From IMG/VR virus record IMGVR_UViG_3300012668_000254, positions 1 to 38,028 of that record: 38,028 nucleotides of DNA; one strand, 5' to 3'. Made by a program: the position numbers and the translations under genes. The DNA is from a virus. The notes below the pieces were generated by a model. It was not told where the DNA came from. It was given only the letters and a program-made list of their open reading frames with translations, and searched no databases. Positions 2,959 to 38,028 of this stretch are shown here, piece after piece (position 1 is the stretch's first letter; every line of letters begins with the position of its first letter).

Positions 2959-3555
2959 ATGGGAAAAAAAGTAAATTTTGAAAGTAAAGAATACCTTGAA
3001 AATAGAATAAAAAGTTTTTATGAAAAAATAAAAGTTGATAAAAATGGTTGTTGGTTGTGGCTCGGCGCAAATAACCAAAAATATGGAATAATAAGAATAA
3101 GAAAAACAAATATGGGTGCTCATAGGTTTTCTTATGAATATATAAAAAAAGAATCTATTGGTGATAAATTTGTCTGTCATAAATGTGATAATCCAATTTG
3201 TGTTAATCCTGATCATTTATTTTTAGGAACTCATAAAGACAACATGAAAGACGCTGTTGCAAAAAAAAGAATGGCATTTGGTGAGAAAGTTCATGGTAAT
3301 AGATTAAAAGAAAAAGAAATTAGAGAAATTCAAAGATTGATTAAAATAGGATTAAGTCAATCTCAAATTGCTAAAATATTTGATATTGAACAAACTAATA
3401 TTTCTCATATCAATTTAAATAGAAATTGGAAAAATTCAGAAAAATTAGAATATGATAGTGACATTTTAATTAAATGTATGATTTCTTTTTTTGGAGAGAT
3501 GGAAACTTATAAATTACTTCTTTTTTATGATAAAATGGTAAAAAGTTTAAAATAA
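2959..3555 (+). CDS. Free-standing HNH homing endonuclease (HNH_3 type with C-terminal HTH)
   Basis: NGCWLWLG...GAHRFSYE...CHKCDNPICVNPDHLFLGTHKDNMKD motif, then LSQSQIAKIFDIEQTNISHI (HTH). Inserted between two structural genes. Confidence 0.9.
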   Translation: MGKKVNFESKEYLENRIKSFYEKIKVDKNGCWLWLGANNQKYGIIRIRKTNMGAHRFSYEYIKKESIGDKFVCHKCDNPICVNPDHLFLGTHKDNMKDAVAKKRMAFGEKVHGNRLKEKEIREIQRLIKIGLSQSQIAKIFDIEQTNISHINLNRNWKNSEKLEYDSDILIKCMISFFGEMETYKLLLFYDKMVKSLK

Positions 3556-5954: not shown

Positions 5955-7621
5955 TGGTTGCCGATATATTTGATCAAATTGATAGCGATTTGCCCCCCCA
6001 ACAGATAAAAAAATCTGGTGGAGATGTATTTGATCAAATTAAAGAACCAGAAGAAGGTTGGGGAAAATGGGCTGCAAGAACTGCATTACAAGTTCCTCAA
6101 GGTATAGCAGAAGCTACACCAGCAGGTATTGGAGCAAGTATATTTCAATTATTGGCATTGGGTGAATCAGATTTAGATCCAGAGGAATGGAATAAACTTA
6201 GAGGAATGTATGCAGAAAAAGGAATAGATTTTGATGAAGCATATGAAAAAGGTCGTCAAGAAATGCTTCAATCTATTCCTACAATTGGGAATATAGCAAA
6301 AAAAGTTGAAGAAGAAACAGGTTTACCTTTAGAACCAAAAACAGCACTCCAAAAAGGATTAAGATTAGGTTCTTCTGCTTCTAAATTTACTTCAGGTTCT
6401 ACATCTCAAAAAGCTATCGCTGGAGTAACTGCTCCTTTAACATCTAAAGCATTACAAGAAGCAGGAGTACCAGAACCTATTTCTGATGTAATTGGTCTTG
6501 GAATCGGAACTGGAATTGGTCAAAAATCACCAGCAATTTCTATTGGAAAACAAACCAAAGAATCTGGAATATCTAAACGTGGATTTGAAAGTTTAGAAAA
6601 ACCACGCGAAGTTTCACAAAGTAAAATTAATAAAATAAATGATAAAATACAATCTGATTTTAAAGAAATTTCTAATAAAATAATTGAAGATAGTTCTATA
6701 GGTTCAACTGCTAAAGAATTAGCTAAAAATCCATCCTTTAAACAAGAATCAAGAGAACTTTTAAGTGAAGCTAAAAATATTGCTGACACTATTAAAGAAA
6801 CTACACCAGTCAAGTCGATGAAAAAAGAAATCATGGACTATTCAAAAAAAGAGACTAAAGGATTTATTGAGAGTGAATATGATAAATCTTATTCAAAATA
6901 TATGAATGATGCTTCAAAAGATTTAAAAGGCAATGATATAACTGCTTCTCAACTCGTTGATCAATACAGAAAGAACAACTCTGCTTTAAGTGAATATTTT
7001 GAACCTGGAGCTTCTAAAGCATTAAATAGAGCTAAACGTGATGCATTATTAGATCAAAACAAAGTAATAGCAAATGTCTTAGAGAAATCCTATCCTGAAT
7101 CTGAACTTTCACCTGTTTTTAAACAAGGAAATGAAAGATGGACAAAAATAATGGATGCAGAAGCAGTGGATGGATTTGTAAATGAAATGTTTAAAGATGG
7201 TGTTAATTATAAAAAGATGCACGATTTCTTTGATAAAAATGGATATGATAGAGTCTTCAAAAGAGCATTAGGAGAAAAAGGATATAAAGATTTTGAAATT
7301 CTAATGAAAGATATGCTATCTAATGAAGCTCCTTATAAAATGCTGAAGGTAGCTAAAAATAAAGGATATGAAAACTTATTTAGCACTGGAATGAGTTATA
7401 TTCTTCATCCAAAACTTGGAATTGCTAAATCTGGCTGGGATCTAAGTAAGTCTGGATTTAAAGCACTACTTAATTATACGTTAGATAAACCAAAATTAAT
7501 AATAGAATGGAAGAGTGCTATTGACACTCTTAAAAAGGGTGACTTTAAAAAAGCAGAAACAAAATTTGAAGCTTTAAAAAAATTTAATGAACACAAAGAA
7601 AAACAAATTATGAATCCGTAA
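5954..7621 (+). CDS. Large internal virion protein candidate (555 aa)
   Basis: The ATG overlaps the upstream stop (TTTAATG). Long ORF and the last gene of the rightward structural block. Confidence 0.65.
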   Translation: MVADIFDQIDSDLPPQQIKKSGGDVFDQIKEPEEGWGKWAARTALQVPQGIAEATPAGIGASIFQLLALGESDLDPEEWNKLRGMYAEKGIDFDEAYEKGRQEMLQSIPTIGNIAKKVEEETGLPLEPKTALQKGLRLGSSASKFTSGSTSQKAIAGVTAPLTSKALQEAGVPEPISDVIGLGIGTGIGQKSPAISIGKQTKESGISKRGFESLEKPREVSQSKINKINDKIQSDFKEISNKIIEDSSIGSTAKELAKNPSFKQESRELLSEAKNIADTIKETTPVKSMKKEIMDYSKKETKGFIESEYDKSYSKYMNDASKDLKGNDITASQLVDQYRKNNSALSEYFEPGASKALNRAKRDALLDQNKVIANVLEKSYPESELSPVFKQGNERWTKIMDAEAVDGFVNEMFKDGVNYKKMHDFFDKNGYDRVFKRALGEKGYKDFEILMKDMLSNEAPYKMLKVAKNKGYENLFSTGMSYILHPKLGIAKSGWDLSKSGFKALLNYTLDKPKLIIEWKSAIDTLKKGDFKKAETKFEALKKFNEHKEKQIMNP

Positions 7622-7694
7622 AAGTCCCAATAACTACAAGCACCCAAAAAGCTATTTTAACAAAAAAAAAGCATCCAATTATTACTGTCGCCAT
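7608..7694 (-). CDS. Tiny hydrophobic peptide (28 aa, MATVIIGCFFFVKIAFWVLVVIGTFTDS), speculative
   Basis: AAGGA RBS 6 nt upstream of the ATG. One TM-length hydrophobic stretch. Last ORF of the leftward membrane cassette; overlaps the 3' end of the convergent gene. Confidence 0.25.
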   Translation of the reverse strand: MATVIIGCFFFVKIAFWVLVVIGTFTDS

Positions 7695-7706
7695 TATTAT
7701 TCCTTC

Positions 7707-7772
7707 TTAATCAACATTAAAAGCTATAAATGTAAGTATCATTGAAGCAAAAAAAACTAATATTAAACGCAT
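7707..7772 (-). CDS. Tiny hydrophobic peptide (21 aa, MRLILVFFASMILTFIAFNVD), speculative
   Basis: The ATG sits 1 nt after the upstream stop (TAAGATG). Entirely hydrophobic. Confidence 0.25.
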   Translation of the reverse strand: MRLILVFFASMILTFIAFNVD

Positions 7773-7773
7773 C

Positions 7774-7950
7774 TTATTTTTTTCCTACTTTGACCAATTC
7801 GATAAACATTTCATATAATTTATCCGTTCTTAATGCTTGTGCGCGAATTTCTTCTCTTGCACTTCTTATATCTGCTAAAGATTCCCTATGAATATAATAA
7901 GCCGATCCTATAACTGTTGCCATAATTGATGATGTTTGTATCCAGTCCAT
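7774..7950 (-). CDS. Small N-terminal-TM protein; divergent member of the holin-like (BhlA/UviB-type architecture) family
   Basis: Start taken at MDWIQTSSIMATVIGSAYY, immediately after the upstream stop. TM helix followed by a charged helix. Lacks the DFHGRLC motif. Confidence 0.55.
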   Translation of the reverse strand: MDWIQTSSIMATVIGSAYYIHRESLADIRSAREEIRAQALRTDKLYEMFIELVKVGKK

Positions 7951-7951
7951 C

Positions 7952-8167
7952 TTATTTCCCTTTACTTCTTTCTTCAATTTTACAGAGACGCCCATGAAAT
8001 GCACGAGAATCTTTTAAGATCTCTCTATTCCAACCCCTTATTTCAATTTCAAAAGCCTTTATATCTGATCTAATCCAAGAAATTAACCCAACCATTAGTG
8101 CTATTTGAATACTTGCTATAGCTGCAATTGCAGAAATCAAACCCCAATCCAAATTATTCATTTTCAT
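7952..8167 (-). CDS. Small N-terminal-TM protein with C-terminal FHGRLCKIEERSKGK motif (family member 3)
   Basis: TM helix LISAIAAIASIQIALMVGLISW, then ...SRAFHGRLCKIEERSKGK. The ATG abuts the upstream TAA. Confidence 0.7.
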   Translation of the reverse strand: MKMNNLDWGLISAIAAIASIQIALMVGLISWIRSDIKAFEIEIRGWNREILKDSRAFHGRLCKIEERSKGK

Positions 8168-8401
8168 TTATTCCTTTTTTATACATTTACAATCTGGATC
8201 ATGCAAAATATTATCCCCAGCTGAATTCCAAGTATTTCTTAAAAAAATATAAGAATGATCTTCAAATTCTATTTTATATAAATATCTACAAGGTGCTATC
8301 TTTTTAAAATCTACTTTGTCATATTCTGAATCTTCACTCTTGCAAGCTACAAAAAAAACCATCACACCAAATAAAAACATACCAAATAAGAAATCATTCA
8401 T
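8168..8401 (-). CDS. Probable small lipoprotein (o-spanin-like or exclusion-like), Cys-rich
   Basis: Start taken at MNDFLFGMFLFGVMVFFVAC (signal peptide plus lipobox-like FVAC), with further Cys residues (PCRY, DPDCKC). The MEDYV... N-terminal extension in the track is an alternate-frame read of the upstream paralog motif. Confidence 0.55.
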   Translation of the reverse strand: MNDFLFGMFLFGVMVFFVACKSEDSEYDKVDFKKIAPCRYLYKIEFEDHSYIFLRNTWNSAGDNILHDPDCKCIKKE

Positions 8402-8594
8402 GTTTTCTATTTCTTTCCTCTGTTCTACATAATCTTCCATGGAAATCTTTCATTTCGGTTTGTATTTCTCTGATTAGAGTACAAATATCTCTTCTATCGG
8501 CATTTGCTTCTGTTCTTAGCCAAAAAAACATACCGATTGAAATAGCAGCATTTGCTAAAACTATTGTTACAACTTGAGTCCATGTATCTGTCAT
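8394..8594 (-). CDS. Small N-terminal-TM protein with C-terminal MKDFHGRLCRTEER motif (family member 2)
   Basis: AAGGA RBS. TM helix VVTIVLANAAISIGMFFWL, then EIQTEMKDFHGRLCRTEERNRKHE. Confidence 0.7.
   Translation of the reverse strand: MTDTWTQVVTIVLANAAISIGMFFWLRTEANADRRDICTLIREIQTEMKDFHGRLCRTEERNRKHE
8426..8456. repeat. 31-nt exact repeat shared with 28355..28385
   Basis: Same string read directly at both loci. Confidence 0.9.
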
Positions 8595-8606
8595 AATTTT
8601 TCCTTA

Positions 8607-8876
8607 TTATTTCTTTCCTTTACTTCTTTCTTCGATGTCGCAAAGTCTCATCTTAAATTCTATATCTTGTGTAGCAAGTTTAGTGTGAAAATCTTTCATT
8701 TCATCTTTTATGGAATTTAAGATATCTTGAGTGTTTTTTCTATGCTCATTTAAATTTTCTGAAGACTCTTTTCTATATTCATCAGATTTTCTATCACTAT
8801 AGCAAAATAAACCTATGACGGTTCCTAAATTAGCTACTGCAATAGCTACAACAGTTAGCGCTTGTTCTATTTGCAT
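8607..8876 (-). CDS. Small N-terminal-TM protein with a split MKDFH...RLCDIEERSKGKK motif (family member 1)
   Basis: AAGGA RBS. TM helix LTVVAIAVANLGTVIGLFCY. The motif is interrupted by a 12-aa insertion (TKLATQDIEFKM). Confidence 0.7.
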   Translation of the reverse strand: MQIEQALTVVAIAVANLGTVIGLFCYSDRKSDEYRKESSENLNEHRKNTQDILNSIKDEMKDFHTKLATQDIEFKMRLCDIEERSKGKK

Positions 8877-9034
8877 ATATTTTCCTTTTTTAAGAATTTA
8901 TCTTAACACACTTAGACTTAACATTCAACATAAAAGAATTTATTGTCAAACTTCATCTTTATCAATGTCCAATTCAATAAATATTCCTAATATAATTTCA
9001 GTAATAACACTCATCTATTGCCTATATTTAAATT

Positions 9035-9068
9035 TTGAATTATACATAAAGAGAAACTTTTAACTTTA
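9035..9068 (-). promoter_or_regulatory. Leftward promoter candidate: extended -10 TGTATAAT plus upstream TAAAGTT
   Basis: The minus strand reads TAAAGTT-14nt-ATGTATAATTCAA. The same bipartite element recurs at 14875..14907 upstream of another leftward gene. Confidence 0.5.
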
Positions 9069-9082
9069 CAGGTATAACATAC

Positions 9083-9713: not shown

Positions 9714-9986
9714 ATGAAATATCCTAAACCTTTCGGTGAAAAAATTCTCGTTAAAAGAGATAAAGTTGAAAATACTGGTAAACTCCTTTTTTCAACTAAT
9801 GTACCAAAAAATGAAGGTATAATCGTTGAAGTTGGTTGTGATACAAAAGAAAAACCAATGAGAGTAGAAATAGGTCAACATATAATGTTTTCGGGATACG
9901 GATTGACTAAAGTTCCAATTGATGAAGATAAAGAGAATGAATATATTTTAATGAATCAAAGTGATATTTTAGCTATTCTAAATTAA
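9714..9986 (+). CDS. groES: GroES/Cpn10-like co-chaperonin
   Basis: Aligns by eye along its whole length to E. coli GroES: PKPFGEKILVKRDKVE vs IRPLHDRVIVKRKEVE; EGIIVEVG vs RGEVLAVG; VEIGQHIMFSGYG...EYILMNQSDILAIL vs VKVGDIVIFNDGYG...EVLIMSESDILAIV. Confidence 0.9.
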   Translation: MKYPKPFGEKILVKRDKVENTGKLLFSTNVPKNEGIIVEVGCDTKEKPMRVEIGQHIMFSGYGLTKVPIDEDKENEYILMNQSDILAILN

Positions 9987-11962: not shown

Positions 11963-12180
11963 TAAGAATTGCTCTGAATAAACCTTCTCTGATTGACTCG
12001 GAAGCCCGATGGGGTGACGAGGGGCAAGTTTAAATACAGCCTGAACGACTGAGCGAGAGGGACTCGGAAACGAGTATGCAACAGTCTGAACACTACGGAT
12101 AACACCAAGGTAGTGAGGGAGATTCGAAGAAGTTTCCCCGCTCACAATATATTGTGAGTCATAAAAGTAACAGATCTCGG
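11963..12180 (+). ncRNA. ORF-less group I intron in the portal gene (about 218 nt)
   Basis: GC-rich structured island in AT-rich DNA. Elements seen: P1 (11957-62 / 11971-76); P3 ccttctc (11983-89) / gagaggg (12055-61); R-like gaacgactga; P8 hairpin actcg-GAAA-cgagt (12062-75); S-like acagtctgaac. The 3' tail ...ctcacaatatattgtgagtcataaaagtaacag is shared with the capsid introns. The exact 3' splice site (after G12180 vs G12173) is inferred from the reading frame. Confidence 0.75.
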
Positions 12181-18955: not shown

Positions 18956-19279
18956 TTATCTATACTTCGAGGGACAATCTTTATTCTGACAGGCTTTACC
19001 AATAGGCCAGAATTGGTAACAATAAGGACACTTCCAAGTCTTTTCATAGTTTGATCGACAATCTTTTCTATGTATTAAGTCTTCTGTAAGAGAATAAAAT
19101 CCCGTTTCATCTCTATGAATACAATTCGTTTCTATCCATTCATTTCCACCCATATGTACTCTAAAAGCACAGTCTGAGCTATCTAAATTGATTGGATCAA
19201 TATACATTTTACTTGATGCACACAAAACGAATGATGCAATCAAAAAAGGGAAGATTAATAATTTAAAATATTTATTCAT
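18956..19279 (-). CDS. Secreted Cys-rich small protein with a C-terminal zinc-ribbon-like CPYC...CxxxxC
   Basis: N-terminal signal peptide MNKYFKLLIFPFLIASFVLCASS and 8 Cys in the mature part. Confidence 0.55.
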   Translation of the reverse strand: MNKYFKLLIFPFLIASFVLCASSKMYIDPINLDSSDCAFRVHMGGNEWIETNCIHRDETGFYSLTEDLIHRKDCRSNYEKTWKCPYCYQFWPIGKACQNKDCPSKYR

Positions 19280-19908
19280 AATTCAATTCTCATGGGTTTG
19301 TTAACGGGTTCATACCTTTCATTCATAATACTGCAATTTACACAAATTGTAGTCGTTAAATCAATCATTTTGCCGCCATTTTCGTGAATATGCGAGAAGA
19401 TCACTAATTTTGGTTTTATTCGAAATATAGCATCTCTTAAAGAAGTAGATCCTACATGAAGCATAGAACCATCTTGTTTCTCGATTTCATCAAGAATACC
19501 AAATGGAGGACTATGCGAAATTAAGATATCAATATCCTCAGGAATAAGATCAGATTTTTCTTTCATATATTTTTCATTCCCACAAAATGCTGTACACTTT
19601 GGATTTATCTCGCTGAAAGATAAACTATAGGGAATTCCAAAAAACTTAAAACCTTTATATTCAATCCCTTCATTTTCTAAATAATGACCATTTTTAATTT
19701 TATAAGTTTTATTTTCAAGAAGATTGTCATGATTACCACCAATTACAATTTTAAGATCAGCTTTTTGTTTTTTCAACCACTCGTCAAACATCTCATATTC
19801 TTTATAAGAATCACGAGCAGTGAGATTTCCTGTTATTATCAAAATATCACAAACATCTATAATAGGTTTATATCCATGCAAACATCCAACAGAAATAATT
19901 TTTTTCAT
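19276..19908 (-). CDS. Calcineurin-like metallophosphoesterase with variant metal-binding motifs
   Basis: GGNHDN, LISHSPP and FSHIHENGG are present. The first two canonical motifs read GCLHG (not DxHG) and ITGNL (not GD). Confidence 0.7.
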   Translation of the reverse strand: MKKIISVGCLHGYKPIIDVCDILIITGNLTARDSYKEYEMFDEWLKKQKADLKIVIGGNHDNLLENKTYKIKNGHYLENEGIEYKGFKFFGIPYSLSFSEINPKCTAFCGNEKYMKEKSDLIPEDIDILISHSPPFGILDEIEKQDGSMLHVGSTSLRDAIFRIKPKLVIFSHIHENGGKMIDLTTTICVNCSIMNERYEPVNKPMRIEL

Positions 19909-20504
19909 AAATGAGAATATGACCTATAATTTATATAATTTGAGATTGCTTGCTTAGTAACACCATATTTTTTTCCTAATTCAGTTATAGAATTTTCTGG
20001 GTATGATTTTCTTATTTCAATAATTTGTTGATCTGATAATTTAGAGTTATAATTTTTTGATCCAAAAAGAGATCTTCCACGTTTAACCATATCTTCTGAA
20101 TTTTGTTTTGTAGTTCCTGTTTCTAAATGTGCAATATTACAACAATTTCTTATATCACATTTATGACGAATCACTAATCCATCGTAATTTGCAGGAAAGT
20201 AGTGAGAATATATCAATCGACTTATTAGATAATTTTTATCACAAATATAAAAAGTTCCATAACCATAATTATTTTTTGAATTTATCCATATTTTGCAACC
20301 ATTTTCATTTTCAGATAAATTTTCCACAATTTCTATCAAATCTTCAATCGAATTTCGGTATTTTCTTGTTGCATGTGGAGTACCAAGTCTTTTAAAATTT
20401 TGATAGTGCTTACTACAATAACCTAAACCTTTTGATGGTTCTTCGCATATTTTACATTTTTTTCTTTCAAATCTATTTTTAAATGAATATTTACGATTCG
20501 TCAT
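19905..20504 (-). CDS. HNH homing endonuclease (HNH_3 type with C-terminal HTH)
   Basis: NGCKIWINS...YGYGTF...RHKCDIRNCCNIAHLETGTTKQNSEDM, plus ITELGKKYGVTKQAISNYI. Overlaps both neighbouring genes. Confidence 0.9.
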   Translation of the reverse strand: MTNRKYSFKNRFERKKCKICEEPSKGLGYCSKHYQNFKRLGTPHATRKYRNSIEDLIEIVENLSENENGCKIWINSKNNYGYGTFYICDKNYLISRLIYSHYFPANYDGLVIRHKCDIRNCCNIAHLETGTTKQNSEDMVKRGRSLFGSKNYNSKLSDQQIIEIRKSYPENSITELGKKYGVTKQAISNYINYRSYSHL

Positions 20505-27553: not shown

Positions 27554-27733
27554 ATGCGAATGATTTTTATTGAAGTAATTGTATTTTCATGGCTTTCCAT
27601 AATGCTTACGTCTTGTACGATAAGTTTTCAAAACATTAGTACTCATGGATATGCGAATGATTTAGTCGATGACGAATTTAAGAATGATCCAGATGTCAAA
27701 CCGAGTTTTACGATCCCAGCTACAGTAATGTAA
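27554..27733 (+). CDS. 59-aa lipoprotein
   Basis: GAGG RBS. MRMIFIEVIVFSWLSIMLTSC carries a canonical lipobox L-T-S-C. Below the ORF-track cut-off. Confidence 0.55.
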   Translation: MRMIFIEVIVFSWLSIMLTSCTISFQNISTHGYANDLVDDEFKNDPDVKPSFTIPATVM

Positions 27734-28156: not shown

Positions 28157-28339
28157 CTAGTCTTTTTTCATATTCTTCTTAATTACAATTAAATTTTCAA
28201 TCCTATTATCTAGTGGATCACTATTTATATGATACACATGCTCACTTTGATCTAAAATACGCCCTAAATGTTCTTCCATGATATGTCTATGAATACGTTT
28301 TTTTTGACCATTTATCGTTTTATAGGGGTAACCGTTCAT
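28157..28339 (-). CDS. Small HNH endonuclease
   Basis: RIHRHIMEEHLGR...HVYHINSDPLDNRIENL (H-N-N/H pattern). Start taken at MNGYPYK. The MEDYV extension in the track is an alternate-frame read of the upstream paralog motif. Confidence 0.7.
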   Translation of the reverse strand: MNGYPYKTINGQKKRIHRHIMEEHLGRILDQSEHVYHINSDPLDNRIENLIVIKKNMKKD

Positions 28340-28550
28340 TTTTTGCCTCAATTTTACATAATCTTCCATGGAAATCTTTCATTTCATAGTGCATTGTTTT
28401 TATATCTTCCCTAATCGCATTGTATAAAGATAGATAGAAACCAAACATCGTGAATAAAATCACTAAATTAAACCCCACAATAGATACAATTTGTATGATA
28501 TCTGTTTTTTTTGAGTGATAATAGGATTTGTTTTTATTTTTATTTGACAT
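28320..28550 (-). CDS. Small N-terminal-TM protein with MKDFHGRLCKIEAK motif (family member 5, unlinked copy)
   Basis: TM helix IIQIVSIVGFNLVILFTMFGFYL, then EMKDFHGRLCKIEAKNE. Shares 31 identical nt with member 2. Confidence 0.7.
   Translation of the reverse strand: MSNKNKNKSYYHSKKTDIIQIVSIVGFNLVILFTMFGFYLSLYNAIREDIKTMHYEMKDFHGRLCKIEAKNERLPL
28355..28385. repeat. 31-nt exact repeat shared with 8426..8456
   Basis: tacataatcttccatggaaatctttcatttc occurs at both loci and encodes EMKDFHGRLC on the minus strand. Confidence 0.9.
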
Positions 28551-28551
28551 T

Positions 28552-28689
28552 TTAGACCTCTAGAATTTGTTTTTTTATAAGGTCATTCATGAATTCTTTA
28601 ATCGTAATTCCACGTTCTATACACATAACTTTTATCTTTTTATGTATTACCGCTTCAACTTGGATGTGTATTGATGGATTTTTTTTCAT
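28552..28689 (-). CDS. 45-aa ribbon-helix-helix (Arc/CopG-like) protein
   Basis: Hand-translated: MKKNPSIHIQVEAVIHKKIKVMCIERGITIKEFMNDLIKKQILEV, a beta-strand then two helices as in RHH repressors. AAGGA RBS. Its stop is 1 nt before the next ATG. Confidence 0.55.
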   Translation of the reverse strand: MKKNPSIHIQVEAVIHKKIKVMCIERGITIKEFMNDLIKKQILEV

Positions 28690-29993: not shown

Positions 29994-30914
29994 ATGGAAA
30001 GAAGTAAGGAAGATTTAATGTATTCATATGCTGCTGGAGCCATAGATGTCGATGGGTCAATTTACTTAGTAAAAGAAAGTAATTTGCATATCCCATTCAT
30101 TCAGTTGGTGAAAAAATTTGGCTCGCTTATCTCTTCATTTAAAAATGATTTTGGTGGTATGACAGGATCTTTAAAAGCAAGACAGCCTCATCATGCACCA
30201 CTTCATTATTGGAGATTAAAAGGTTCTGAAAATTGCAGAGACTTTCTTTTGAAAGTTGTTCAATTTTTAGTCTATAAGAAGGAAAGGGCTGAAGTTTTGT
30301 CTGAATATATTGAAAAGAATCCATTTGTGAGAGGAAAAACACTTAGCGTTGAACAGTTAATTGAGCGTGAAAAGTACCATGTTAAATTAGGCACATTAAA
30401 TGATGAAGCTTATTTAAAAAACATCTCCATGACAGCAAAAACTCATCAGAATACTTATGATGAGGCTTTTTGGTCATATGTAGCGGGTGTTATGGATACT
30501 GACGGTTCATTTTCTGTAAAAAGACAAAAAGGGCATTCTGAAACAAAAAACCTTCGATATATACCCTGCATTCAAATGTCTATGGCATCCTTAAATGTCA
30601 TAAACCACATAAGAAAAAACTGTATATTTGGTACCGTCTGTGTAGTCAAAAATAAAAGTTGCTCACGTGGGTTTCATTATTCCTGGAGTATTGGTAAGAA
30701 GCAGGATTCTGCTGAATTTATCGAAAAGATTCTTCCTTATTTAAAAGAAAAAAAAGATCAAGCAATGATTCTTTTAGACTTTTGCAAAAATGCAGAAAAC
30801 ACAAAATTTTGCAAAGCAGGGATTTCTGAAAAGGAATTAGAGTTTAGAGAATCATGTTATCAAAAAATTGTAGCATTAAATAAGAGAGGCAGCCTGTTGT
30901 GTGAAACTCAATAA
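29994..30914 (+). CDS. Double-motif LAGLIDADG homing endonuclease
   Basis: Two dodecapeptide motifs: YAAGAIDVDGSIYL and YVAGVMDTDGSFSV. 306 aa. Out of frame with the capsid exon. Confidence 0.9.
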   Translation: MERSKEDLMYSYAAGAIDVDGSIYLVKESNLHIPFIQLVKKFGSLISSFKNDFGGMTGSLKARQPHHAPLHYWRLKGSENCRDFLLKVVQFLVYKKERAEVLSEYIEKNPFVRGKTLSVEQLIEREKYHVKLGTLNDEAYLKNISMTAKTHQNTYDEAFWSYVAGVMDTDGSFSVKRQKGHSETKNLRYIPCIQMSMASLNVINHIRKNCIFGTVCVVKNKSCSRGFHYSWSIGKKQDSAEFIEKILPYLKEKKDQAMILLDFCKNAENTKFCKAGISEKELEFRESCYQKIVALNKRGSLLCETQ

Positions 30915-31241
30915 GGTTAGAGATCACATAAAACTTGGCTATATGCTGGAAACCCCTAAAACCTTCGGTACCTAAATGGTGACAATCTGAAGGATATTAC
31001 AATGGGCAATCAGCAGGGAAGACTCGAAAGAGAACCCTCAACGACTACACGCCAGGCACTCTGTAACCGCAGAAGTGAAGATATAGTCTGAACAGTGGTG
31101 AGAGCCATTGAGAGAGGAATAACAAGACTCTCCGCCTAGAAATAGGTCACAAAAGTAACAGTTAGTGCATTATAAATGAGCAAGTTATTTTGCAAGATCA
31201 AGAGGGTGAAGGACTTACGTTCGAAATGTACGCCCTCTTAG

Positions 31242-31310: not shown

Positions 31311-32134
31311 TAACTTTAAGTCCTCGATAAATCTAACCTGATTGACTTGGAAACCCTTATCACCCGTGTGAAAGGGCAACAAGGGGCAAGTGTTTAATTA
31401 GTATTGTAAGGAATCAAAGTGTTCAATATCTGCTTTAAGAAAACCTTTTGCGTTGAGTCTAGACATCTCAACTCTCATGTCTTCTCGAAGGGCGATGATT
31501 TCGGGATCAAGAGGAGCGTGTGCGCCACATCCTTTTTGATTTTCATAGGACTTTCTAAACTCGATCATAATCTCACATTGTCTTTTCTTAAGAACAAGAT
31601 AAGGCAAAACTTGAGTACAAATGTCGAGAAGACGATGACCTTGAACAACCCATTCATAAATCCATCGCTCATGAGTGGAATTTTTCTTAAAAATAGATCG
31701 CTTATGTTTCTTAGATTTATTGAGATTGCCAAAATGCAACTCAATCCAATCAAAAAGTTCCTTTTTTGTATTAGAAATGTTGAGTACAGCTCTAAAGTTT
31801 GGGTTTTGGTATCGGTTATACTTCGCGGGATTAACACGATAAATACACAAAGAGCCTTCACCATCAATAATACCTGCAAGGTAAGCAAGTATGAGAGGTT
31901 TATAAATCTTTTTTTTGTATTCAATTATAGGCATTCACATTCTCCTTTGTTATGTGTGTAGGTGCGTGTATATTGTTGCATAAAACTAATTAAATGTACA
32001 GCCTGATCGACTTAGCGGTTGGAATGTAGAAATACATATGCGAAAGTCAGAACTCGAACTATAAATAAAATTCGAGAGGGAGATCCGAAGAGGTCACCCC
32101 GCTCACAGTATATTGTGAGTCATAAAGTAACAGG
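31311..32134 (+). mobile_element. Group I intron 2 in the capsid gene, with an antisense LAGLIDADG gene in the P6 loop
   Basis: P1: exon gaggat (31305-10) / gtcctc with a U-G at the junction. P3 ctaacc / ggttgg. P6 extended stem tttaattag (31393-401) / ctaattaaa (31986-94). P8 atgta-GAAA-tacat. The 3' tail ccccgctcacagtatattgtgagtcataaagtaacagg is nearly identical to the portal intron. Confidence 0.75.
31398..31934 (-). CDS. Single-motif LAGLIDADG homing endonuclease, encoded antisense to its host intron
   Basis: YLAGIIDGEGSLCI motif, 178 aa. Own AAGGAG RBS on the minus strand. Its stop codon lies inside the P6 stem. Confidence 0.85.
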   Translation of the reverse strand: MPIIEYKKKIYKPLILAYLAGIIDGEGSLCIYRVNPAKYNRYQNPNFRAVLNISNTKKELFDWIELHFGNLNKSKKHKRSIFKKNSTHERWIYEWVVQGHRLLDICTQVLPYLVLKKRQCEIMIEFRKSYENQKGCGAHAPLDPEIIALREDMRVEMSRLNAKGFLKADIEHFDSLQY

Positions 32135-32740
32135 TTGTTAATTTTACGCGATTACATCGTTTCAGCCGCTTCCGAAATTATGGCCGGTGGTGGTTCAAAT
32201 AATGATAATCCAACTAACCTTGGTATCAGTGATTTTAGCTTAGTTGCTACTACTCTTGATACAAATAACGCTTATAAGTTTATGAGTGGTATTGAAGGTA
32301 TGGATAGATTCGGTACAGGTCCTGTTAGATCAGCATATTTTATGCTATCGTCTACAGAATTGCAAACCGATTTTGATGGATTAGTAGGCCAAGGGTTTAA
32401 AAACCAATGGGACTATCCAACAAATGCTAGTGCTTTGCCATCTGAGTATGGTTCTGTATTTAACGTACGTATTTTGACATCGTCAGAGGCTCCTGTAGCT
32501 CGTGGTGCATCTGCTAATGGTCAGGATGTTTACTATAATACCGTTGCTGGTAAGCAAGCATTGACACACGTAAATCAAGATGGATACTCAATGAATCTGA
32601 TTTATCGTGACCCATATTATTCAGGAATGTTGGCTCAAAATGCGACTTTAGCAGTTAAATTTGCTCAAGCTCAAGCTTTGACTCAAGATACAGCGATCAG
32701 AAACCTATTATCAACACGTTTAGCAGTATTAAATTACTAA
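32135..32740 (+). CDS. Major capsid protein, exon 3
   Basis: Has no start codon or RBS of its own; the track's TTG is fortuitous. LLILRDYIVSAASEIMAGGG...VFNVRILTSSEAP...ATLAVKFAQAQALTQDTAIRNLLST resembles C-terminal halves of HK97-fold capsid proteins. Confidence 0.75.
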   Translation: MLILRDYIVSAASEIMAGGGSNNDNPTNLGISDFSLVATTLDTNNAYKFMSGIEGMDRFGTGPVRSAYFMLSSTELQTDFDGLVGQGFKNQWDYPTNASALPSEYGSVFNVRILTSSEAPVARGASANGQDVYYNTVAGKQALTHVNQDGYSMNLIYRDPYYSGMLAQNATLAVKFAQAQALTQDTAIRNLLSTRLAVLNY

Positions 32741-34383: not shown

Positions 34384-34992
34384 ATGAAAATATGTAAAAA
34401 TTGTAAATTAGAGAAATCGATGAAAGAATTTTGGAAATCATCGAGGACACCGGATGGTTATTTAAGTAGATGTATTGCATGTGAAAAAGAAAAAAGTAAA
34501 ATTTGGCGTGATGAAAATAAAGGTAGATTAAAGGAATCATGGAAAAAATCTAGGATAAATAAAAAATTACCTGATGATGAAAGGATACGAAGAAAAAAAG
34601 GTGAATCTAGAAAAGAACATAATGAATTAAATAGAATTCGATATAAACTTAACTTCGAAAATATAAGTAAACGAAGAAAAGAAAAGGTATTAACACCCGA
34701 ACTTAGAAAAAAGTTATGTGAATATGTTAAAAAAAGCCGAAAGTTACACAGAGAAAAGCATATTAAATATCAAATAGAATATCATAAAAAAGTAAAAAAA
34801 TTCCAAGTCCATCAAAAAGTTTATTATGCTGTAAAAACAGGGAAACTTATCAAACCTCTTTATTGTGAAAAGTGTGGTGAAAACAAACCTTTACAAGGTC
34901 ATCATCATGATTACTCAAAACCTTTAGATGTTTTATGGGTATGTCTGACGTGTCACTGTCAAATTCACAAAAAATTGTTATACTTAATTTGA
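34384..34992 (+). CDS. Free-standing HNH endonuclease with an N-terminal zinc finger and a Lys/Arg-rich middle
   Basis: C-terminus CEKCGENKPLQGHHHDYSKPLDVLWVCLTCHCQIH (HNH with flanking CxxC pairs). N-terminus CKNCK...CIACEKEK. Confidence 0.8.
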   Translation: MKICKNCKLEKSMKEFWKSSRTPDGYLSRCIACEKEKSKIWRDENKGRLKESWKKSRINKKLPDDERIRRKKGESRKEHNELNRIRYKLNFENISKRRKEKVLTPELRKKLCEYVKKSRKLHREKHIKYQIEYHKKVKKFQVHQKVYYAVKTGKLIKPLYCEKCGENKPLQGHHHDYSKPLDVLWVCLTCHCQIHKKLLYLI

Positions 34993-37536: not shown

Positions 37537-38028
37537 TGGGTTTAATAAGTTATATTCGAGATATACCAGATGGTCCTAATAACCCATCTAATGATCAGCC
37601 AAACATGAAATTGAATAATAATGCAATCGAAGATTATGTTGCAGTAGATCATGTTCCTTTTAATGTAAATAATAGCGGTTATCACACCATTATTCATCAA
37701 ACTTTACAAGTTGCAAATCCAGCTCCTATTTCAAATATTGCACAACTTTTTGTTAAAAACGTATCTATCACGAATAGCGCGGGTACTGGAACAGATAACC
37801 AATTATTTTATGAAACTGGTTTAGGAGGAGTATCACAAATTACTGGCAGTCATTCTGCTACAAATGGGTTTTCTTTTATTGCGGGAGTGATTTTACAATG
37901 GGGTATAATTGCTCCTACAAGTGCTGGAACAGTAACTGTATTATTCAATACCGCTCCTAATTTCAATTTTCCCAATGCTTTATTAAATGTTCAAGTCACA
38001 AGACAAAGAACAACTTCATCTGCTGGAA
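37536..38028 (+). CDS. Tail-fibre-like protein, 5' part (continues at position 1 through 187)
   Basis: The ATG overlaps the upstream TAA (ATGTAATGG). MGLISYIRDIPDGPNNPSNDQPNMKLNNNAIEDYVAVDHVPFN...GYHTIIHQ resembles fibre and baseplate N-termini. The ORF runs off the window end. Confidence 0.75.
   Translation, partial: MGLISYIRDIPDGPNNPSNDQPNMKLNNNAIEDYVAVDHVPFNVNNSGYHTIIHQTLQVANPAPISNIAQLFVKNVSITNSAGTGTDNQLFYETGLGGVSQITGSHSATNGFSFIAGVILQWGIIAPTSAGTVTVLFNTAPNFNFPNALLNVQVTRQRTTSSAG
37952..38028. repeat. Second copy of the 77-nt terminal overlap
   Basis: Exact identity to 1-77. A length equal to a common assembler k-mer suggests an assembly overlap rather than a physical terminal repeat. Confidence 0.95.

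Follow-up and report, generated by a model that had tools for sequence, protein, structure and literature searches.

The 38,028-nt stretch of viral DNA studied here (IMG/VR record IMGVR_UViG_3300012668_000254, positions 1 to 38,028; this whole stretch is hereafter called the window) contains, at 7608-8876, seven short open reading frames (ORFs) that run head to tail on the minus strand and are flanked by two plus-strand blocks. Three of the encoded proteins, paralogs A, B and C, end in a cysteine-containing motif, here abbreviated FHGRLC, which, as judged from profile searches, defines a real and undescribed protein family. We tentatively propose, with a probability of about 0.4, that the cassette is a hetero-oligomeric, holin/antiholin-like module of the inner membrane. 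What is new here, within the small phage membrane-protein modules, is a protein superfamily together with its unusual organisation.

The C-terminal motif defines a protein family

An alignment of the paralogs matched 228 small proteins in a collection of 5.8 billion proteins. When 1.84 billion cluster representatives were scanned exhaustively with HMMER, 901 of them (50%-identity clusters) matched at E<=1e-3 and 397 at E<=1e-10, all 54-147 aa long, and 213 IMG/VR contigs, mostly of 35-42 kb, carry the family. The metagenome search for the motif that had been suggested in the initial annotation, which was made from the sequence alone, has thus brought to light a large family. No Pfam domain was found on it: scans against Pfam, PHROGs, NCBIfam and PDB sequences returned scattered coiled-coil noise, which for the cassette proteins and 86 superfamily members comprised YdaT_toxin, COX4, YtxH (at 0.002), HSBP1, one XhlA and one KID match. 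The Pfam families listed are 25 of 30 for 53 FHGRLC members and 25 of 46 for 33 members of D/K type, each unlisted family matching at most one member. The PDB sequence-profile search with the family yielded nothing better than E=0.13, the family consensus had no tblastn match at E<=1 in 50,697 GenBank phages, and the motif string was not found in a literature search. As no Pfam, NCBIfam, PDB or literature match was obtained and PHROG matches were sub-threshold, the earlier remark that the cysteine motif could not be assigned to a described family can be upheld.

The motif is conserved as protein. Among 111 distinct motif instances, picked by a regular expression fixing the residues, all six Leu and Arg codons, the four Gly codons and both codons of Cys, His, Asp and Phe are in use, which points to selection at the protein level. 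Conservation as a DNA or RNA element, or by recent gene conversion, was considered and rejected, synonymous sites being saturated.

Every member is predicted to be a single continuous helix, and the layout is common to all. A short N-terminus of acidic character (MDWxQ) leads into a membrane segment, after which come a repeat linker of variable length, the near-invariant C-terminal motif (E-M-K-D-F-H-G-R-L-C-A-I-E-E-R) and a Lys/Arg-rich tail. The linker between membrane segment and motif measures from ~10 to ~90 residues and is commonly built of 7- or 11-residue repeats (ADRRE, NRKETQELVAT x3, EARREERQYFE x2). In a motif-anchored logo of 261 sequences, the a/d positions of three or more heptads are occupied by hydrophobic residues (I, I/L, I, M, F, L, I), conservation extends to the two g-to-e' pairs E(-4)/H(+1) and R(+3)/E(+8), and a conserved exposed stripe is formed by K, D, G(+2), C(+5, 85%), A(+6) and E, including the small-xxx-small element G-x-x-x-A; the tail is 44% Lys/Arg. 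When paralog B was modelled by AlphaFold2 with a 53-sequence family alignment, one uninterrupted helix was obtained (residues 2-65, pLDDT 95). From the heptad register and the g-to-e' pairs, the conserved C-terminal region is probably a parallel coiled coil, whose exposed stripe would be a putative interface with another helix or with a partner protein. K+R averages 0.15 residues on the N-terminal side of the membrane segment vs 3.05 on the C-terminal side, with a bias toward a cytoplasmic C-terminus in 115 of 120 members; by the positive-inside rule, the C-terminal part is predicted to face the cytoplasm (N-out/C-in).

Organisation of the cassette

All seven leftward ORFs of the initial annotation were recovered (Table 1), and the independent gene calls of the Joint Genome Institute (JGI) for the same genome (89, 66, 77, 71 and 58 aa) agree for the five larger ones. 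The cassette lies on the opposite strand between two late-gene blocks. Its intergenic gaps range from an 8-nt overlap (-8) to +12 nt, and Shine-Dalgarno-like elements (AAGGA/AGGGA/GAAGGA) are found 4-7 nt 5' of five of the seven genes (A, B, C, D and F), those of the lipoprotein gene and of E being distant and weak. The cassette is a single compact, translationally coupled operon of small envelope proteins. Two promoter-like sites 5' of it, at 8971-8942 and 8965-8937, are only suggestive, because their count does not exceed the shuffled expectation. Between the cassette and the terminase gene, a 90-aa GroES/Cpn10 homolog is encoded at 9714-9986 (+; precomputed Pfam PF00166).

Table 1. Genes of the cassette, its 5' region and the distant fifth superfamily member (window coordinates).
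Feature	Position	Strand	Description
Paralog A	8607..8876	-	89 aa; membrane segment at residues 7-25; long helical linker; 11-mer-duplicated C-terminal motif, then SKGKK
Paralog B	8394..8594	-	66 aa; canonical subtype: MxDTWxQ - membrane segment - WLRTEANADRRD - ...EMKDFHGRLCRTEERNRKHE
Lipoprotein-like protein	8168..8401	-	77 aa; signal/anchor helix to FVAC, then small beta domain
Paralog C	7952..8167	-	71 aa (MKMNNLDW...; possibly 69 aa from second Met); subtype WIRSDIKAFEIEIRGWNREILKDSRAFHGRLCKIEERSKGK
Paralog D	7774..7950	-	58 aa; true start MDWIQ; divergent superfamily member; ends RTDKLYEMFIELVKVGKK, not FHGRLC
Micro-ORF E	7707..7772	-	21 aa; single hydrophobic segment (MRLILVFFASMILTFIAFNVD)
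Micro-ORF F	7608..7694	-	28 aa (MATVIIGCFFFVKIAFWVLVVIGTFTDS); strong GAAGGA ribosome-binding site 6 nt upstream
Divergent intergenic region 5' of cassette	8877..9082	none	sigma-70-like minus-strand hexamers, one perfect TTGACA
Copy G (fifth member)	28320..28550	-	76 aa; Lys-rich N-terminal extension, membrane segment, ...EMKDFHGRLCKIEAKNERLPL

The initial annotation had described four proteins with an N-terminal membrane helix followed by a charged helix, three of them ending in the motif. The latter is correct for A, B and C, and hydropathy confirms the former for the same three, which have a single N-terminal hydrophobic segment (Kyte-Doolittle 2.2-2.4) and then a charged region; in D the segment is weaker (1.02), although D homologs have clear membrane segments. 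The 12-aa insert said to split the motif of A turns out to be a duplicated motif unit, 11 residues long (FHTKLATQDIE / FKMRLCDIEER), a variant that recurs across the family, e.g. in P0018 and P0111 (family proteins are given as P numbers and loci as L numbers). The JGI calls contain a protein identical to B, P0001. B and C match the family profile at E=9.9e-35 and E=6.9e-22, respectively, and orthologs of C (P0007-P0011, P0016) occur on other contigs at 75-82% identity. The dual start MKM of C was considered as a holin/antiholin signature and rejected, its orthologs not keeping MKM.

The count of four paralogs needs correction, as a fifth member, copy G, had been missed some distance from the cassette; D, for its part, is a divergent member of the superfamily. 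In hmmsearch, A matches the A2 profile at E=8.9e-19 and G matches the family profile at E=6.5e-15, each with the protein in question left out of the model, so that their paralogy is not due to chance. Copy G, which shares with copy B a 48-nt stretch that is 90% identical, belongs to a leftward, early-looking operon of small genes. It stands directly behind a 45-aa ribbon-helix-helix-like ORF (28552-28689, -) and ahead of a small HNH endonuclease gene (28157-28369, -); the JGI calls omit it because it overlaps the HNH gene call.

Tandem arrays and micro-peptides

Paralog D has the C-terminus RTDKLYEMFIELVK (RTDKLYEMF type). An iterated D-type profile run on the fetched loci collected 37 ORFs, among them canonical FHGRLC members at E=3e-6 to 1e-4, and one protein of locus L001 bears both the FHGRLC-type and the D-type motif. 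By these profile matches, A, B, C and D are members of one superfamily. Two to five FHGRLC genes are found within ~12 kb in 36 of 99 loci. In the largest array (L049 348-2267), an uninterrupted run of nine genes, five of FHGRLC type and four of RTDRLYEMF type, precedes a conserved micro-peptide of 22 aa. In multi-copy loci, 95 of 100 copies are closer to a gene of another phage than to their own array (median 96 vs 50 bits), which indicates that the arrays are ancient paralog sets and not recent amplifications, made up of old and distinct subtypes that each have orthologs in other phages. The notion of one amplified module is therefore sound as regards a single superfamily for A to D and misleading as regards amplification.

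The two tiny hydrophobic ORFs previously noticed, E and F, are indeed present. Such ORFs were counted elsewhere on the criteria of a length of 18-45 aa and an ATG located between -8 and +20 nt from the final stop codon. They are present after 21 of 110 array ends of the family and after 10 of 1034 control ORFs, an odds ratio of 24 (p=1.4e-15). These array-end statistics are what supports micro-ORF E, with no E-specific homolog shown. One peptide family of 21-22 aa (MIILEILGGALLLLWLERNVF) is robustly conserved. With a leave-out profile (L097+L052), a 36-aa ORF of L001 came first (E=0.01) and micro-ORF F second (E=0.14) among 6378 tiny ORFs, and similar peptides are encoded at the corresponding genomic position in L001 and L102, the one in L102 being closely related to that of L001. 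The 3' end of F overlaps by 14 nt a convergent 555-aa virion gene. When the latter was used as an independent marker in IMG/VR, the single-protein scan had no match and the alignment-based scan found five loci; in all five relatives, as in the window, a superfamily member or micro-peptide is convergent to the virion gene.

Further small proteins recur 3' of the arrays and are absent from the window. One is a small membrane-protein family with the pattern KHADT..LGG..SS..WMNGKF...EKD.A.IKTVL.MK..MP.ELA, and another is a '...DERIFYLATGKTL.EAM' group; loci with these extra downstream groups are L028, L042, L073, L079, L083, L084, L087 (e.g. 6357-6560) and L094.

The interleaved lipoprotein-like protein

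The gene interleaved between B and C starts at MNDFLF and overlaps the 3' end of B by 8 nt (ATGAATGA). Its product has five homologs in 5.8e9 proteins. That it is a lipoprotein, as the initial annotation held probable, is favoured by a lipobox Cys in four of the five homologs (FVAC, FVSC, FVAC, AVSC; the fifth is without Cys) and disfavoured by the lack of K/R in the n-region. Invariant residues of the mature domain follow the pattern RYLYKI...FLRNT.NS.GD..HDP.C.C. AlphaFold2 predicts a helix at 2-21 and four strands (pLDDT 74), the mature part being a four-stranded beta sheet (pLDDT ~82), and a Foldseek search of this model against the PDB gave no fold match at E<=1e-3. With ~57 aa and two Pro, the mature part departs from the Pro-rich, largely unstructured domain by which an o-spanin is recognised.

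The orthologs of this protein occur in differing contexts: in L110/L111 next to a tail-fibre-like gene with no family member near, and in L099 after a variant superfamily member; from L001 and the other relatives examined it is absent. Given these contexts and the few homologs, the lipoprotein appears to behave as an independent mobile gene and not as a fixed partner of the family. It would more likely be a receptor-masking or exclusion factor than an o-spanin. A relationship to the 107-aa secreted protein of the window (see below) was looked for and rejected, no similarity being found.

Genomic contexts and probable host

The exact motif is present in 10 of 185,579 species genomes, and six of those contigs are phage-like and related to the window. 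Chromosomal copies lie in ordinary surroundings: two in tandem on a 998-kb, non-prophage Parachlamydiaceae contig (L011 7962-8392), and single copies directly after cydAB (L007 7995-8195) and near queE/queC (L010 7995-8246), both in Parachlamydiales metagenome-assembled genomes (MAGs). One more copy is found immediately after an MFP-ABC-OEP efflux operon (L015 10001-10222), on a metagenome contig of 73 kb that has no taxonomic assignment. No neighbour is common to these four loci, and homology of the large convergent genes beside the L007 and L015 copies was rejected, none being detected. Phage contigs of the clade (L005, L006, L008, L012, L013, L014) have been binned into Chlamydiae, Bacteroidaceae, Scalindua, Legionellales and Kosmotogaceae MAGs. 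As these phyla are unrelated, MAG taxonomy is unreliable as host evidence and we used chromosomal contexts alone; all three that are taxonomically labelled are Parachlamydiales.

A second small envelope protein points the same way. Encoded in the window at 18956-19279 (-) is a secreted protein of 107 aa, rich in Cys and carrying the C-terminal motif WKCPYC...WP.G..C.N..CPSKY; its 45% identical homolog (E=2.6e-21) bears the NCBI name 'MULTISPECIES: hypothetical protein [Parachlamydia]'. In cultured genomes this homolog resides on chromosomal contigs of 240-288 kb in a non-phage neighbourhood. G+C is 33% in the window vs 39-44% in these loci. Two small envelope-protein families common to the phage and to Parachlamydia/Parachlamydiales chromosomes point to tailed phages of environmental Chlamydiae, and we assign the window phage, with moderate confidence and by these shared families, to a host among the Parachlamydiaceae. 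To our knowledge only Microviridae have been isolated for Chlamydiae and no tailed phage of the phylum has been described; our literature search found none. Phage-derived tools would be valuable for environmental Chlamydiae. Chlamydial plasmids are known to carry phage-derived genes (PMC7846284). Relatives of the 107-aa protein are also encoded directly 3' of FHGRLC genes (L032 3127-3480, L043 6193-6495, L107-L109 10001-10390).

Lysis genes and the possible function of the cassette

An exact 77-nt terminal direct repeat (1-77 = 37952-38028) indicates that the window is a circularly closed assembly and therefore a complete phage genome of 37,951 bp. It encodes a large terminase (TerL), a P22-type portal, RecE/RecT-like recombinases, an O-like replication protein and numerous homing endonucleases. 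A search of the window DNA and of the portal against the 50,697 GenBank phages gave no match, and TerL is at most 35% identical to anything cultured. In this genome, no lysozyme, amidase, transglycosylase, peptidase, holin or spanin family was detected with Pfam/PHROG in any ORF of at least 100 aa, nor was a lysis family present in the precomputed Pfam annotation of the JGI gene calls for the whole genome. The earlier remark that no endolysin is visible thus holds at the level of hidden Markov models (HMMs) for ORFs of that size; a novel lysin may hide among the ~25 ORFs without family assignment. In a genome-wide hydropathy scan, membrane or signal segments were confined to the cassette, copy G, the 107-aa protein and a 59-aa lipoprotein, with no multi-pass holin candidate. 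The cassette family provides the only candidates for a holin/antiholin-like role, because otherwise just two small exported proteins carry such segments. The 59-aa lipoprotein is the product of a lone gene (27554-27733, +); with its canonical lipobox, LTSC, and a short mature part containing Pro, it is on sequence grounds more o-spanin-like than the cassette lipoprotein, but no type II membrane-protein gene is found beside its own.

In the proposed module, the superfamily subtypes and the micro-peptides would co-assemble as hetero-oligomers in the host inner membrane and would control its integrity, acting on timing and permeabilisation as holins and antiholins do. Small size, at least one membrane segment and a charged, basic C-terminus are operational holin features that the family displays, and the analogy with holins of a single transmembrane domain (TMD), which share the single membrane segment and basic tail, lends support to a holin-like role. 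The position of the cassette argues in the same direction: the portal is of P22 type, and the cassette is situated close to the terminase/portal block, the region that houses the lysis genes in P22-like phages. Close parallels are the class III, single-TMD holins and protein E of phiX174, likewise small proteins with one membrane segment and a basic, charged cytoplasmic C-terminus. Protein E brings about lysis without a dedicated muralytic enzyme and has the N-out/C-in orientation that is predicted for the family. Unlike the family, however, these proteins have their specificity in the membrane segment; no homology to them was detected, and the family has chromosomal copies.

Several observations weigh against this proposal. 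No endolysin stands beside the family in any of the ~99 loci (among the listed Pfam families), and the neighbours are recombination, integration, RNA-repair and regulatory proteins. For 74 representative viral-locus neighbours (at least 95 aa) the matches include RecT, YqaJ, ERF, integrases, resolvases, RNA ligase, PNKP, methylases, ParA, Band_7 and HTH, with no lysin domain among the matches listed (25 of 39 Pfam families). A conserved large neighbour hinting at function was also sought and rejected, since 123 neighbours fell into 88 clusters. Copy G is placed in an early-looking operon behind a ribbon-helix-helix-like ORF, and the Lys-rich N-termini of G and of some A-type copies predict the opposite orientation. 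Single or paired copies in non-prophage Parachlamydiales chromosomes are unusual for a lethal holin. Moreover, the invariant part of the family is the soluble C-terminal motif and not the membrane segment, in which holin function usually resides. Topology and oligomerisation are themselves predictions made by simple rules.

The rival that we consider doubtful, yet deserving most attention, is a moron cluster for superinfection exclusion or lysogenic conversion, i.e. a set of envelope accessories that block competitors or mask a receptor and are dispensable for lysis. It would account for a cassette inserted on the opposite strand between late blocks with its own promoter-like region, for copy G in an early/immunity-like operon by the ribbon-helix-helix-like ORF, for the serine recombinases or integrases that adjoin family genes in at least 10 loci and for the orphan chromosomal copies in Parachlamydiales. 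Cassette composition differs among close relatives, and old, diversified subtypes fit an arms race. The lipoprotein adds to the case: T5 llp adjoins a receptor-binding protein gene, and the lipoprotein ortholog of L110/L111 is placed in a similar manner by a tail-fibre gene. Like T5 Llp and T1-phi80 Cor, the cassette lipoprotein is small and exported and has a beta-rich, Cys-containing mature domain, although it matches them neither in sequence nor in fold. Nonetheless, the Pfam, PHROG and NCBIfam scans revealed no similarity to known exclusion proteins, no integrase was detected in the window phage, a conserved motif facing the cytoplasm is unexpected for a periplasmic block of DNA entry, and the phage would be left without any lysis-gene candidate. 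It is unlikely, in turn, that the family is a host-type membrane adaptor resembling PspB or YhcB, captured from Parachlamydiales. Its conserved cytoplasmic coiled-coil face would then bind a host protein that is itself conserved, for example a protease or a component of cell division or of the envelope-stress response, and would serve host takeover or the management of membrane stress. The architecture is that of PspB and YhcB, i.e. an N-terminal membrane segment and a cytoplasmic coiled coil in 60-130 aa, with chromosomal members, here in ordinary neighbourhoods. Invariant exposed residues on a soluble helix (the KDFHGRLCAIEER face) argue for a conserved partner, and the far greater richness of phage contigs in the family fits capture followed by expansion. 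Against an adaptor, no HMM similarity to PspB, YhcB, FtsB or another family was found: PspB (PF06667), YhcB (DUF1043) and FtsB are not among the Pfam families listed for 53 members, and the sole match is NCBIfam FtsB at E=0.047, in one chromosomal copy. With the exact motif in so few cellular genomes, most of them through phage-like contigs, the family looks phage-centred and not cellular. Unlike PspB and YhcB, it is overwhelmingly phage-borne and comes in tandem arrays coupled to micro-peptides, which an adaptor leaves without explanation.

The initial annotation had also seen a likeness to i-spanin/o-spanin pairs. A two-component spanin, with B (or A/C) as i-spanin and the overlapping lipoprotein as o-spanin, joined via C-terminal cysteines, now seems highly improbable. 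The resemblance to Rz/Rz1 is one of layout, in that the gene of a coiled-coil protein with a membrane anchor is overlapped by 8 nt at its 3' end by the gene of a lipoprotein; the family has one conserved Cys near its C-terminus and the lipoprotein two invariant C-terminal ones. Paralog A, and none of B, C and D, has sub-threshold matches to Rz-like PHROGs (E=0.004, phrog_6197; E=0.048, phrog_214). Intermolecular disulfides are typical of spanins, and deviant spanin lipoboxes such as FVGC have been reported (PMC6139136). However, class II i-spanins have an N-in/C-out topology (spanin criteria from PMC6139136), opposite to that predicted for 115 of 120 members here. The single uninterrupted helix beyond the membrane segment is of ~35-65 aa, vs ~130 aa in two coiled-coil domains for Rz, and the conserved Cys is at a heptad b position, unsuited to an intra-dimer disulfide. 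The lipoprotein, with its five homologs vs more than 900 family clusters, its absence from relatives, its orthologs without a family member and its predicted beta sheet in place of a Pro-rich, unstructured domain, seems not to be a cognate partner, and no holin-endolysin genes are linked.

The other likeness initially noted, to BhlA/UviB holin-like proteins (PF10960, e.g. BhlA/BhlB of SPbeta), is real in architecture: ~70 aa, an N-terminal membrane segment, a charged helical tail (by hydropathy and AlphaFold2), and adjacent paralogs carried by phages or prophages. It does not extend to membership, as PF10960 had no match at E<=1 in the seven cassette proteins and is not among the families listed for the 53 and 33 members. 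The signature motif is another one, and whereas BhlA genes adjoin an amidase endolysin in Firmicutes prophages, the family here is without linked endolysin and in a presumably diderm host. XhlA, also named as a family to be checked, gave one stray match (E=0.02) in one of 33 members and is absent from the families listed for the 53, and the membrane segment here is N-terminal, in mirror image to the C-terminal anchor that characterises XhlA. The Bdr proteins of the Borrelia cp32 prophage are likewise paralogous, small, membrane-anchored helical proteins with variable short repeats and a conserved terminal domain. Their anchor, however, is C-terminal, and no homology was found beyond one stray KID-repeat match (E=0.037). 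The family belongs to none of these architectural look-alikes, because every HMM-based test of membership was negative.

The holin/antiholin-like module remains our tentative reading. If it is true, the family, with its 900 or more clusters at 50% identity, would constitute a large class of holin/antiholin-like proteins that cross the membrane once, their functional signature being a soluble coiled-coil motif in a genome with no detectable endolysin, and phage exit would be directly testable. A bolder extension, which we regard as improbable, is an endolysin-independent lysis or egress machinery of a clade of tailed Parachlamydiaceae phages, in which hetero-oligomers of FHGRLC proteins and micro-peptides might breach the envelope of a host with little reliance on a conventional peptidoglycan sacculus, the genes being exchanged with the host chromosome. 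Whatever its function, the family is a clean marker of a sizeable, uncultured clade of ~36-42 kb phages, apparently podovirus-like (P22-type portal), with no cultured relative, and the array-coupled hydrophobic ORFs of 18-45 aa flag real micro-proteins overlooked by gene callers.

Additional features of the genome

A group I intron (Rfam RF00028, 79 bits) is located at 30848-31110 (+), with a LAGLIDADG-type ORF on the opposite strand (31398-31934, -). Both are just 5' of an ORF (32135-32740, +) that matches only the C-terminal half of a major head protein profile; at least one self-splicing intron appears to interrupt the capsid gene. A 51-nt element occurs in two copies, 90% identical, at 12115-12165 and 32076-32126 and nowhere else in the genome. 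It contains the palindrome CTCACAnTATATTGTGAG. One copy directly precedes the ORF of the portal and the other that of the head protein, and the element may represent either the 3' end of an intron or a site of late regulation. Besides the LAGLIDADG ORF, at least five HNH-type endonuclease genes are present (2959-3555, 19905-20504, 28157-28369, 29994-30914 and 34384-34992), a load of homing elements that is unusually heavy for a 38-kb genome.

Genes of RNA repair are found repeatedly in the clade: the window has a metallophosphoesterase (19276-19908, -), and relatives have RNA ligase, PNKP phosphatase and RtcB (L001 2573-3966; L002 386-1576 and 5048-5596; L016 8223-8888). Their recurrence suggests counter-defence against host tRNA-cleaving nucleases.

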